This document shows, in pieces, positions 7,379 through 49,661 of a stretch of 52,782 nucleotides of DNA. Made by a program: the position numbers and the translations under genes. The stretch is from Escherichia phage vB_EcoM_swi3. Positions within the stretch are counted from its first letter, which is position 1; the number at the start of each line of letters is the position of its first letter. The stretch lies in the sequence record MT768059.1. One strand, written 5' to 3'. The notes below the pieces were generated by a model, which made no database searches, was not told where the DNA came from, and was given only the letters and a program-made list of their open reading frames with translations.

Positions 7379-7407
7379 TTTACTTACTTCGCGTAACTCG
7401 TTATAAT
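7379..7407 (+). promoter_or_regulatory. sigma70-like promoter TTTACT-N17-TATAAT(cc)
   Basis: Read directly; upstream of terminase small-subunit candidate. Confidence 0.5.
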
Positions 7408-9183: not shown

Positions 9184-10746
9184 ATGTCGATAACCCCAAG
9201 CAGCACGCCGAACGTCGGATACCAGCGTCCTGAGCTGACTAAGAACGCTGGTAAGTACCGAATGATTAAGGACTGCATCGAGGGTCAGGAAGCTGTTAAA
9301 GCACGCGGTGATTTCTACTTGCCCCGACCTGACCCTACGAACTGCACAGAAGAAAACCTGATGCGGTACAATTCGTACCTGCGTCGCGCTGTGTTCTATA
9401 ACGTACTACAGCGAACTCTTTCGGGTATGACTGGCCTGGTATTCCAGCAGCAGCCTGAGATGCTGATGCCTGACGATATGGAAGTGCTGAAAGTAAATAT
9501 CGACGGTGCAGGCATTGGCGCTATTCAGCAAATGCGTAAGTGCTTCAAGTCTGTTCTGGCTTTTGGTCGCGCAGGTCTGCTGACTGACTTCCCTAAAGCA
9601 CGTATCGGTGAGTTTGGCGAGTCCATTGGCTTTACACGTAAAGAGCTGATGGATGGAGATGTACAGCCGACAGTAACGCTGTATATGCCATGGCAGATTA
9701 TAAACTGGCGGGAAGAGTATCGCAACGGTAAAGTGATGCTCACTCAGGTTGTCATTTGCGAACAGATACCGGGGGTTACTGATGGCTTTCAGCAAGACTA
9801 CACACCCGTGTGGCGTCACCTTTACCTGGATGAAGAAGGCAATTGCAACCAGTCTTTGTGGGTCAATAAGGGCGACAAGAATGCGCAGAACGTCTCCGGT
9901 GGTGCGTTGTATGTCACGCAAGAAAATGTTGTCTTACGCGACTCCAACGGCTTACCGCTGAAGTTTATTCCGTTCCAGTTTATTGGTTCTGAAACAAACA
10001 GCGCTGAGATTGACCCTCCGCCGATGTACGACTTAGCTGTGCTTAATATTGCACACTACCGTAACTCTGCTGACTACGAAGAGTCATGCTTCGTAACAGG
10101 TCAACCCACAGTATGGGCGTCTGGACTTACTGAGGCATGGGTTGAAGATGTTCTGAAGGGTGAATTGCGACTCGGTTCGTTTGGTGGTATTCCGCTGCCG
10201 GCTAACGCCGCTGTAGGTATTATCCAGACCAACCCTAACACCCAGCCGTTTGAAGCGATGAAGCAAAAAGAAGCACAGATGATTGCAATCGGTGCTCGTC
10301 TGATTCGTGAGAATGGTAAGGTAGAACGACGCGAAGTTGAGATTAAGAATGAAGCGGCGTCTGAAGCTTCGCTTATCGTAACTGTTGCGCAGAACGTTGA
10401 AGCTGCTTATCGTAAGGCAATCGAATGGTGTGGCCTGTTCTACGGACACCCTAAAGAAGAAATTACGATTAACCTCAGCTACAACTTCATCTATAGCCAG
10501 TTGACTTATCAAGAACGTCAGCAGCTGGTTAACGAATGGATTGCCGGTGCTATCACGTTTAGTGAAATGCGTAGCAATCTTAAACAAGCTGGCATTGCTA
10601 AGCTCACCGATGAAGAAGCCAAGAAGCTAATTGACGAAGAGCTGGCTGAACGCGATGCGCGTGAGGTAGCAAAAGAAGCAGAAAAGAACGCTCAAGCAGC
10701 TAAGAACAGCGATGGGCAGGAAAATAATCCAGAAAAAACTGAATAA
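9184..10746 (+). CDS. portal protein
   Basis: 520 aa directly after terL; size and position typical. Confidence 0.6.
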   Translation: MSITPSSTPNVGYQRPELTKNAGKYRMIKDCIEGQEAVKARGDFYLPRPDPTNCTEENLMRYNSYLRRAVFYNVLQRTLSGMTGLVFQQQPEMLMPDDMEVLKVNIDGAGIGAIQQMRKCFKSVLAFGRAGLLTDFPKARIGEFGESIGFTRKELMDGDVQPTVTLYMPWQIINWREEYRNGKVMLTQVVICEQIPGVTDGFQQDYTPVWRHLYLDEEGNCNQSLWVNKGDKNAQNVSGGALYVTQENVVLRDSNGLPLKFIPFQFIGSETNSAEIDPPPMYDLAVLNIAHYRNSADYEESCFVTGQPTVWASGLTEAWVEDVLKGELRLGSFGGIPLPANAAVGIIQTNPNTQPFEAMKQKEAQMIAIGARLIRENGKVERREVEIKNEAASEASLIVTVAQNVEAAYRKAIEWCGLFYGHPKEEITINLSYNFIYSQLTYQERQQLVNEWIAGAITFSEMRSNLKQAGIAKLTDEEAKKLIDEELAERDAREVAKEAEKNAQAAKNSDGQENNPEKTE

Positions 10747-10751
10747 AGCTA

Positions 10752-10780
10752 TTTACTTTCGGTTTACCTGGCTATATAAT
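10752..10780 (+). promoter_or_regulatory. sigma70-like promoter TTTACT-N17-TATAAT(cc)
   Basis: Read directly; followed by long structured leader. Confidence 0.5.
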
Positions 10781-10923
10781 CCTTCATGTCAACCGCGCAA
10801 CAGCCGGCCACGAGAGTCTGCAGGGCTCAGTGGATTTCGGATGGCTGGCTGCGCGGTTTGACCCAAACCTGTTCGGAGCCCACTTGAGTGGATTGAGCCC
10901 CTCTCATATAGGATTGTAAAATT

Positions 10924-11637
10924 ATGGCACTTAAAACAGTTGTAACTGACCTTAACGAAGTTGATGAAGGCTTCCGTGGCCTGTATATCAAAGACGACGC
11001 GTCCGGTGCGTTTCGTTTGGATGTTGAACCAGACGAAAAAACGCTGAAAGAATTAGAAGACCTGCGCAAAGAAAAACAGCGTATGGAGCAGCACACCAAA
11101 AAACTTCTCGAAGAGAAGAAAAAAGAAGCTGAACGTGCTCGCCTCGCTGAAGAAGAACGCGCACGTCGTGAGCGTGATGTTGAATCTCTTGAGCGTTCAA
11201 TCAAAGAGAAGCATCAGGCTGAACTTGAACAGTATACCAGTCGTCAGGCACAGCTGCAAGCACAGCTGGAAGCGCAGATGGTTGATAACATCGCGTTGAA
11301 CCTGGCTAACCAACTCTCTGACACCCCGGCATTAATTATGCCACACATCAAGGCCCGACTGCGCGCTCAGGAAATTGATGGTAAGTGGCGTACTATCGTC
11401 GTGGATGTTATGGGTAACCCGACTGCTACAACGCCAGATGAGCTAGTGGAGCATATGCGCGCTGATAAGCAGTTTGCACCTCTTGTGCGTGGAACCAAGG
11501 CTGGCGGTGGCGGTGCCAACGGCGGCGGAGCTAATCCTGGTGGGAACGGCGGTGGCGAACAGCACACTTTCGGGGGCGGGGATGACCGCATAGCACGTGC
11601 TCGTGCTAAAATCCAAAACACACAATGGGGCAAATAA
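10924..11637 (+). CDS. putative scaffolding protein
   Basis: 237 aa, highly charged coiled-coil (EEKKKEAERARLAEEERARRERD), Gly-rich C-terminus; between portal and capsid. Confidence 0.5.
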   Translation: MALKTVVTDLNEVDEGFRGLYIKDDASGAFRLDVEPDEKTLKELEDLRKEKQRMEQHTKKLLEEKKKEAERARLAEEERARRERDVESLERSIKEKHQAELEQYTSRQAQLQAQLEAQMVDNIALNLANQLSDTPALIMPHIKARLRAQEIDGKWRTIVVDVMGNPTATTPDELVEHMRADKQFAPLVRGTKAGGGGANGGGANPGGNGGGEQHTFGGGDDRIARARAKIQNTQWGK

Positions 11638-11640
11638 GTT

Positions 11641-12618
11641 ATGTCACTGTATATTTTTAACGAACAAGTACGTTCTACCGCCACCGAACTGGTCGACCAG
11701 GACGTACAGAAGTTCAACGAAGCTTCTGCAGGTACCCTTATCCTGGGTAACCAGTACGTAATTGGTGATTACGTTGAGCAGGCAATGTGGCAGCTGGTTG
11801 ACGGCATCGCTACCCGCCGTAATGCTTACGCTGGCACCAACAAAGTTGATGCGCAGACTCTGGGCCAGATTCTGGACCGCTCTGTTAAAATCGACGGCCG
11901 TGTTGGTCCTCTGAACATTACCGGTACTATGATGCGTCGCATCGGTGCAGGTGACACTGAACCAGCAGCTGTTGTTGCTGCACAGGCTTCTGCTGCAATG
12001 TTCCAGGATTACCTGAATACCACTGCTGCATGTCTGGTAGCTGCTATCGGCGCAAACGCTGATGTTGTTCTGGACGTAACTTCAGGCTCCGGTGCTGCTG
12101 CAAACATCACCATGCAGAACCTGAACAAAGTCAACGCGAAGATGGGTGACCGTTCTCAGCAGATTCGTGCGTACATCATGCACTCTACTGCGTTCCACTC
12201 CCTCATCGATCAGGCTATCAACAACACGGAACACCTGTTCCAGATTGGTGACCTGAACGTGTACAAAGACTTCCTGGGTCGTCGTTATGTCGTTTCTGAC
12301 ATCCCGGCTCTGGTTGATGGCGCCGGTGCTTCCGCTAAGTACCGCACTCTGGGTCTGACCCCGTCTGCTGCAATCGTTCAGGTCGGCGGCCTGTACGACA
12401 TGGTTACCTCCGAGCAAACCGGTGGTGAAAACATCCTGCGTCAGATGCAGGGTGAATACGACTTCAACGTGTCGCTGAAAGGCTACAGCTGGGTCGGTCA
12501 CAAAGCTGGTCAGTCTCCGACTGATGAAGACCTGGCTGCTCAGGCTTCCTGGTCTAAAGTTGCGACTTCCAACAAAGACACCGCTGGTGTTATGTTGCTG
12601 GCTAAGTCTGCAATCTAA
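11641..12618 (+). CDS. major capsid protein
   Basis: 325 aa after scaffold; followed by terminator. Confidence 0.6.
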   Translation: MSLYIFNEQVRSTATELVDQDVQKFNEASAGTLILGNQYVIGDYVEQAMWQLVDGIATRRNAYAGTNKVDAQTLGQILDRSVKIDGRVGPLNITGTMMRRIGAGDTEPAAVVAAQASAAMFQDYLNTTAACLVAAIGANADVVLDVTSGSGAAANITMQNLNKVNAKMGDRSQQIRAYIMHSTAFHSLIDQAINNTEHLFQIGDLNVYKDFLGRRYVVSDIPALVDGAGASAKYRTLGLTPSAAIVQVGGLYDMVTSEQTGGENILRQMQGEYDFNVSLKGYSWVGHKAGQSPTDEDLAAQASWSKVATSNKDTAGVMLLAKSAI

Positions 12619-12640
12619 CCCACAAACGGGACTAACAAAA

Positions 12641-12666
12641 GGCGAGCTGACGAGCTCGCCTTTTTT
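12641..12666 (+). terminator. rho-independent terminator
   Basis: GGCGAGCT-gacg-AGCTCGCC stem then TTTTTT. Confidence 0.7.
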
Positions 12667-12667
12667 A

Positions 12668-12696
12668 TTTACACGTATAAAGTTCTGGTATATAAT
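12668..12696 (+). promoter_or_regulatory. sigma70-like promoter TTTACA-N17-TATAAT
   Basis: Read directly after the capsid terminator. Confidence 0.55.
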
Positions 12697-18125: not shown

Positions 18126-18154
18126 TTTACTTAACCGAGGCGCCAGCCTATAAT
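18126..18154 (+). promoter_or_regulatory. sigma70-like promoter TTTACT-N17-TATAAT flanked by inverted repeat
   Basis: GCGCCAGC (18141..18148) and GCTGGCGC (18157..18164) flank the -10. Confidence 0.5.
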
Positions 18155-49508: not shown

Positions 49509-49661
49509 TGGTTGTATCTCCTTAACAGAATGTAAGTCTATTATGTATATAAAGGAGGGGAAAGTAAATAGATATAAATGTATAAAATACATAAAAGTCT
49601 ATTTACTCTGGTTTAATAACGTGTATATAATGAGAGCCCCACAAACAAGAGGAGAGACTCA

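Follow-up and report, generated by a model that had tools for sequence, protein, structure and literature searches.

The scaffold and major capsid genes of this phage are preceded by a long, structured 5′ leader that folds into two domains, and the loops of the two domains are complementary to each other. We analyzed the leader in the window, the whole 52,782-nucleotide stretch of Escherichia phage vB_EcoM_swi3 (sequence record MT768059.1), a complete genome-sized piece from a Rosemountvirus-like enterobacterial phage. The leader is best regarded as a structured 5′ motif that had not been described before. Its general kind, the cis-acting structured leader, is already known, and what is unusual is the two-domain kissing-loop architecture together with strong sequence constraint. 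An earlier note on this DNA had pointed to a long, structured leader before the scaffold and capsid genes, and the comparison with relatives bears this out: purifying selection on the leader is strong, and compensatory changes of base pairs occur. Absent from that note were the second domain, the complementarity of the loops, and the strength of conservation compared to neighboring genes. As to function, we see about an even chance that the leader is a cis-acting, post-transcriptional element that combines a 5′-terminal stabilizer of the message with a module setting translation.

The leader occupies the 177-nt gap between the portal and scaffold genes. See Table 1 for the coordinates of all features. 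The promoter reported in the earlier note, a sigma-70-type site, is present as described. All four lineage groups, and all relatives, retain both hexamers and their 17-bp distance, and the spacer sequence drifts. Transcription is predicted from the promoter position to start at about 10786–10788, which is the foot of stem P1. A terminator scan found no terminator between the portal stop codon and the promoter. About a dozen GenBank records (birk, brunost, ciri, emiel, and others) are linearized at window position 10748, which is 2 nt past the portal stop and just upstream of the promoter; this point may be either a physical end or a convention.

At the other end of the region, the intrinsic terminator is followed directly by a near-consensus promoter, TTTACA-17-TATAAT. 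Therefore, the scaffold and capsid genes appear to be carried on their own message of ~1.9 kb. The predicted unit comprises the promoter, the leader (10788–10923), the two genes, and the terminator (12637–12664). Five other promoters of the same type stand before structural genes in the window with much shorter leaders, and the scaffold leader alone reaches 143 nt. Upstream of the capsid ATG there is just a weak purine run (window 11635–11643). This, together with the 3-nt distance from the scaffold stop to the capsid ATG, suggests that the two genes are translationally coupled and that the leader governs both. The earlier note had proposed that the leader controls the scaffold-to-capsid ratio. 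This does not fit the gene arrangement, because a leader shared by both genes on one predicted message would tune both of them and not their ratio.

Table 1. Features of the scaffold-capsid leader region and of related promoters (window coordinates)
Feature	Position	Strand	Evidence or remarks
Portal gene	9184–10746		
Sigma-70-type promoter, TTTACT-17-TATAAT	10752–10780	+	Promoter scan; conserved hexamers and spacing
Hairpin H1	10788–10862	+	Fold energy, covariation
P1	10788–10798 with 10851–10862	+	Bulged U
A-rich bulge in H1	10799–10801	+	
P2	10802–10810 with 10842–10850	+	
P3	10814–10821 with 10830–10837	+	Core UCUGC/GUGGA
Apical loop L3, AGGGCUCA	10822–10829	+	
P5 5′ strand, CCUGU	10868–10872	+	Pairs with 10908–10912 in all lineages
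Hairpin P4	10885–10906	+	UGAG-U-GG (10885–10891), loop, CC-U-CUCA (10900–10906); RNAalifold
Loop L4, AUUGAGCC	10892–10899	+	
P5 3′ strand, AUAGG	10908–10912	+	Overlaps Shine-Dalgarno-like element
A/U-rich unconstrained spacer before start codon	10913–10923	+	1 of 11 positions invariant
Scaffold protein gene, first gene behind the leader	10924–11637	+	ORF list; annotation of relatives
Major capsid protein gene	11641–12618	+	Capsid ATG 3 nt past scaffold stop
Intrinsic terminator closing the predicted scaffold-capsid unit	12637–12664	+	12-bp stem, then T-run
TTTAC[AT]-17/18-TATAAT promoters before structural and packaging genes	7379–7407, 12668–12696, 18126–18154, 20992–21020, 49602–49631		Leaders 25–35 nt

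The first domain is hairpin H1, a 75-nt structure that starts ~7 nt past the promoter. The inverted-repeat arms described in the earlier note, GTCAACCGCGCAACAGCC (10788–10805) and GGCTGGCTGCGCGGTTTGAC (10843–10862), are present and enclose 37 nt. H1 folds to −42.2 kcal/mol, compared with −25.9 ± 2.8 kcal/mol for 200 dinucleotide shuffles (z = −5.78), and none of the shuffles folded as well. P1 and P2 together form 19–20 bp, interrupted by a bulge of 1–4 nt. In every lineage, P1 starts 4–7 nt past the −10 element, which corresponds to 0–2 unpaired 5′ nucleotides at the predicted start site. The earlier note had also raised the possibility of an attenuator. We find no sign of one, as H1 is followed by CCCAAACC with no U-run, and the terminator scan returned nothing in 10781–10923.

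Six of the 12 pairs of P1 change on both sides. The stem is nearly wholly rewritten in relative L020, where UAUCAG-UU-GUGCGG pairs with CCGCAC-UU-CUGAUA, and in L021–L028 it switches from C-G to A-U and from G-C to A-U. One pair of P2 occurs as G-U, G-C, and A-U across lineages. In P3, one pair is changed on both sides, namely the closing pair (C-G to U-A), and this compensated change comes from one clade and represents a single evolutionary event. In relative L023 (about 1870–1925), the register of P2 is shifted by 4 nt via an AGCC-AGCC repeat, and the long hairpin is retained despite the changed 3′ strand. In this pattern of substitutions, P1 behaves as a structure-only helix, and P2, P3, and the loops are constrained in sequence as well.

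The second domain, formed by P5 and P4, lies between H1 and the start codon. P4 and P5 are paired in 15 of 15 sequences with several compensated changes, counted in a hand-curated alignment that is less neutral than the automatic one. RNAalifold returned both stems on the curated alignment and P4 on the uncurated alignment. The distant group of relatives has P4 in the form UU(U)AGG [YUGAACC] CCUAA(A), with three pairs changed on both sides, and compensated variants of P5 include GCUUGUU/AAUAAGC in L021 and CCAAUU/AAUUGG in L023. The covariance-model alignment left P4/P5 of the distant group and the bulged P1 strand of the window group unrealigned. Minimum-energy folds of single sequences recover P4 and P5 inconsistently.

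P5 is closely associated with the ribosome-binding site. In the window, the only Shine-Dalgarno-like element, UAGGA, ends at 10913, 10 nt before the ATG at 10924, and is overlapped by the 3′ strand of P5. The only such element is held in P5 in three of the four lineage groups. However, the distant group (L021–23 and L028) has a separate AGGAG, UAGGA, or GAGGA 1–6 nt downstream of P5, so sequestration of the Shine-Dalgarno element cannot be the conserved mechanism. The ribosome-binding site is predicted to be of intermediate accessibility (0.2–0.5 unpaired in three sequences), which is uninformative. A second small hairpin before the start codon had been proposed in the earlier note. The sequence CCACTTGAGTGG is indeed present in this window, but the hairpin it would form (CCACTTGAGTGG/CCACUUGAGUGG, 10880–10891) is broken in sister lineages (CCAGTTGAGCGG/CCAGUUGAGCGG) and overlaps the 5′ strand of the conserved P4. 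A candidate small hairpin at the corresponding position in the distant group was likewise rejected, as it is not conserved and conflicts with P4 or P5.

The loops of the two domains match each other. L3 carries GGCUCA (10824–10829), which is complementary to UGAGCC in L4 (10894–10899) over six Watson-Crick pairs, and these are 100% paired in 16 sequences. By chance, two 8-nt loops would share six or more contiguous Watson-Crick pairs with a probability of ~0.002–0.004. One pair of this helix (41:115) is C-G in 12 sequences and U-A in 4, all from one clade, and L3 is changed to AGGGUUCA where L4 is changed to UUGAACC; this compensated switch represents a single evolutionary event. The stems flanking L3 and L4 are both backed by covariation. 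Since the loops are complementary in every lineage and show a compensatory C-G to U-A change, L3 and L4 probably kiss, which would lock the H1 and P5/P4 domains together. Pairing of L3 with the first GAGCCC (10876–10881) was rejected as a conserved feature, since this GAGCCC is absent from L020–L028. No conserved alternative, mutually exclusive pairing was found across the lineages.

We measured conservation on the region aligned from seven genomes, namely Rosemountvirus, Loughboroughvirus S144 and SE4, fHy-Eco03, Erwinia phage SOI901, and two metagenomic contigs; the structure of the leader rests on 15 distinct relatives. Over 10788–10912, 78% of positions are invariant, compared with 20–22% of third codon positions and 82% of second codon positions in the flanking genes. 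In other words, the noncoding leader is as constrained as second codon positions. Invariance reaches 92% in the apical core (10813–10837) and 82% in the 3′ domain. Two short stretches behave like neutral sequence: just 9% of the 11 nt directly preceding the ATG are invariant, and 20% of the 5 nt that separate the portal stop from the −35 element.

Pairing was compared with slid and shuffled controls in the model-based alignment of 16 sequences. In H1 and the loop-loop helix, 95.3% of cells are paired, versus 25–40% when the partners are slid by 1–3 columns, and 8 pairs have changed on both sides, versus 0–3 in the slid controls. None of 500 shuffles matched the observed paired cells, double changes, or covariation score. 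The plus strand folds more stably than the minus strand in nine of nine lineages tested, and the covariance model scores 97–147 bits on the plus strand and 15–31 bits on the minus strand. Together with the G-U pairs, the better fold of the plus strand places the structure in plus-strand RNA and not in DNA.

The constraint on the leader differs from that on the genes beside it. The coding flanks show 3-base periodicity of substitutions with saturated third positions, and no such periodicity is seen in 10788–10912. A small protein gene in the leader was rejected, as indels of 1–2 nt between lineages break every frame on both strands, including a 33-codon ATG frame at 10786 and the minus-strand ORFs. 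One annotated CDS, SOI901_45 of the Erwinia phage (L003, 652–786), and two possible small ORFs in the window, at 10712–10861 (+) and 10827–11204 (−), overlap the leader. Their reading frames are not maintained through the indels that distinguish the lineages, so all three are most likely spurious.

Taken together, the searches restrict the leader motif to a single clade of enterobacterial myoviruses, along with metagenomic relatives of these phages. Positions 10600–11100 are 97–100% identical to Salmonella phages 8-19 and BP63, Escherichia phage IntR, and many others. The useful distant relatives were obtained by searching with the scaffold protein and fetching the encoding contigs. This search returned metagenomic relatives at 76–84%, 52–57%, and 32–38% identity. 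Relatives down to 52% scaffold identity share a gap of ~175 nt, a TTTACA hexamer, 17 bp, TATAAT or TATATT, and a long hairpin 4–7 nt past the −10 element. The clades at 32–38% have either 37–42 nt before the scaffold gene, as in L025 and L027, or an unrelated 237-nt region, and the covariance model built here had no match in them. The 237-nt region (L026, 1764–2000; scaffold 38% identical) is non-homologous and contains a terminator, a promoter-like site, and two hairpins; it may be an analogous but independent long leader.

The covariance model matches the window exactly once. Outside this phage clade, motif scans of IMG/VR and 185,579 reference genomes returned only chance matches and a single MAG contig that is probably mis-binned, and an exact-motif scan of IMG/VR gave five known relatives only. 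Two chance matches to genome contigs lacked flanking similarity, and a degenerate L3 pattern gave two extra chance matches that were rejected by the covariance model. Protein-guided searches of IMG/VR and metagenomes added one new lineage. The MAG contig (L017, JAEWER010000021.1, "MAG: Bacillota bacterium"), 34 kb in length, carries a near-identical portal end and leader of this phage, and its presence in a Bacillota MAG is probably contamination or mis-binning. PP583539.1, "Listeria phage 220426122051," is 97% identical over 10600–11100, and its host assignment looks doubtful. Two RefSeq "complete" E. coli assemblies (NZ_JBVNBN010000003.1 and NZ_CP067310.1) contain ~53-kb contigs filed as plasmids that match the 501-nt probe 10600–11100. 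These contigs are the size of the whole phage genome and may reflect either a carrier state or contamination.

The leader corresponds to no family in the RNA collections searched. Rfam 15, with its riboswitches, ribozymes, leaders, and phage RNAs such as phi29 pRNA, had no match in the whole window at the gathering score and none on 10700–10960 at E values up to 10, and L020 and L021 gave no leader match at E values up to 1. ARAGORN found 0 tRNA or tmRNA genes in the whole window. The characterization paper for phage S144 annotates the region with a predicted promoter and ribosome-binding site only and no leader structure (PMC7432712).

How might such a leader work? H1 begins at the predicted first transcribed nucleotide, which suggests 5′-end protection: the hairpin would shield the 5′ end from 5′-end-dependent decay by RppH and RNase E, as in the ompA and T7 gene 10 leaders. 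A 5′-terminal position is the defining geometry of stabilizer hairpins such as those of ompA and T7 gene 10. The P5/P4 domain is adjacent to the ribosome-binding site, which in this phage falls within it, and we infer that the domain sets or gates ribosome access. The products gated in this way would be the two head proteins needed in the highest copy number. Kissing of L3 and L4 would then lock H1 to the P5/P4 module. However, a pure stabilizer should vary freely in sequence, and P1 does so, but P2, P3, L3, and L4 do not. Their near-invariance points to partner recognition or an intricate tertiary fold beyond plain protection.

Recognition of a partner is central to another reading, which we consider possible but clearly less probable than a stabilizer with a translation module. 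Here the leader would be a regulated translational operator or riboswitch-like sensor, whose invariant P3/L3/L4 core binds a trans factor and thereby switches ribosome access to the scaffold gene and the coupled capsid gene. The factor could be a protein (free scaffold protein, by analogy with P22, or some other protein of phage or host), a small RNA, or a metabolite, and its binding would make or break the kissing fold. The apical core and loops are more conserved than second codon positions, and the outer P1 covaries freely, which is the pattern of an aptamer or operator core. The placement of the only Shine-Dalgarno-like element inside P5 in three of the four lineage groups fits as well. 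There is also precedent, as the P22 scaffold gene is reportedly autoregulated post-transcriptionally. To our knowledge, the target site of that autoregulation was never defined as an RNA structure of this sort. Against an operator, the Shine-Dalgarno element lies outside P5 in the distant group, there is no conserved alternative pairing, and the GAGCCC at 10876–10881, a second copy in this window, is lost in L020–L028. Furthermore, Rfam gave no riboswitch match even at E values up to 10, and the S144 annotation shows no candidate RNA-binding regulator, just a DksA/TraR-type zinc-finger protein and many hypothetical proteins.

In its strongest form, the leader would represent a new class of phage riboregulator, in which the invariant P3/L3-L4 kissing core senses free scaffold or capsid protein, another protein of phage or host, or a small molecule and switches scaffold-capsid translation. 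Sensing of scaffold or capsid protein would couple the synthesis of head proteins to assembly, a link that genetics suggested for P22 without a defined site in the RNA. We put this forward tentatively and regard it as doubtful at present. A more remote version is that the loops pair between molecules and that the RNA has its own role in head assembly.

Processing by RNase III is unlikely. Cleavage of H1 would split the scaffold-capsid message from read-through terminase-portal transcripts and would leave protective hairpin ends or unmask the ribosome-binding site, like the T7 R sites or the lambda N leader. The shape of H1 (11 bp, a bulge, 8–9 bp, an internal loop, and P3) does resemble phage RNase III sites, and the 19–20 bp of P1 and P2 compare with the roughly two turns of (coaxial) double-stranded RNA that such a site calls for. 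Since no terminator separates the portal stop from the promoter, the element would lie inside any read-through transcript. However, RNase III sites need little sequence conservation, which misfits the invariant loops, the second domain, and the loop-loop pairing. The placement of P1 at the start site of the promoter would also be left unexplained.

It is very improbable that the nascent leader acts as a put-like cis antiterminator that binds host RNA polymerase and makes it resist pausing and termination. The put RNA of phage HK022 is likewise a cis-acting folded phage RNA just downstream of a sigma-70 promoter, and the strong sequence constraint on our leader would accord with an invariant host enzyme as binding partner. 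However, put is ~70 nt and V-shaped, with two stem-loops and a triplex, and putL has a −10-like pause element (PMC9378689). This architecture is unlike that of H1 and P5/P4: put is without a loop-loop helix, and no −10-like hexamer was seen in the early transcribed region of our leader (10788–10830). The strong terminator followed by a fresh promoter also argues against a need for read-through. The least probable reading of all, excluded for practical purposes, is that of an element acting in the DNA (an operator palindrome or a signal for packaging or replication) or of an inverted repeat that arose by chance: although the inverted repeat is GC-rich and near the packaging genes, its conserved G-U pairs and its A-U, G-U, and G-C histories work only in plus-strand RNA, the plus strand outfolds the minus strand, covariation in P1, P4, and P5 keeps pairing and not sequence, and a z score of −5.8 together with conservation excludes chance.

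The analysis defines a compact, covariation-backed RNA motif, with a putative loop-loop contact, in front of the genes for the two head proteins that are made in the largest amounts. Rosemountvirus and Loughboroughvirus phages are widely isolated as biocontrol agents for Salmonella, E. coli, and Klebsiella. If the leader is a stabilizer with a translation module, it would be a ready-made high-expression leader for enterobacteria that is driven by the host polymerase. If the invariant core instead binds a partner, the long-standing proposal of a coupling between assembly and the synthesis of scaffold and capsid would gain a defined RNA target.

Among known systems, the thrS operator and the T4 gene 32 5′ pseudoknot are similar in that they are structured modules by the ribosome-binding site with conserved loops, and P22 shows that scaffold synthesis can be controlled post-transcriptionally. 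However, none of the three has homology to this leader, whose binding partner would be hypothetical. Intramolecular kissing loops are known from L2-L3 of the purine riboswitch. There, too, two loops are joined by a short Watson-Crick helix into a compact fold, and the loops are conserved and the stems covary. The junction topology differs, and our leader is without an Rfam match or known ligand.

The leader of T7 gene 10, which encodes the major capsid protein, is carried on the phi10 transcript and has a 5′-terminal stem-loop and a strong ribosome-binding site. It shares with the scaffold-capsid leader a dedicated promoter, a hairpin at the 5′ terminus, and a terminator behind the capsid gene, and the logic would be that of a very stable, heavily translated late message. 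The T7 hairpin is simple, ~21 nt long, and made by the phage polymerase, whereas the leader described here is six times longer, has two domains, and follows a host-type promoter. The 5′ UTR of E. coli ompA reportedly has a 5′-terminal hairpin, hp1, and a second hairpin, hp2, near the ribosome-binding site. The two leaders are alike in length (~133 nt in ompA and ~136 nt here), in the stem-loop at the 5′ end, in the second structured element directly upstream of the Shine-Dalgarno sequence, and in serving a very abundant protein. They share no sequence or model similarity, and the ompA hairpins are sequence-independent and do not kiss, whereas the core and loops of the phage leader are near-invariant and complementary.
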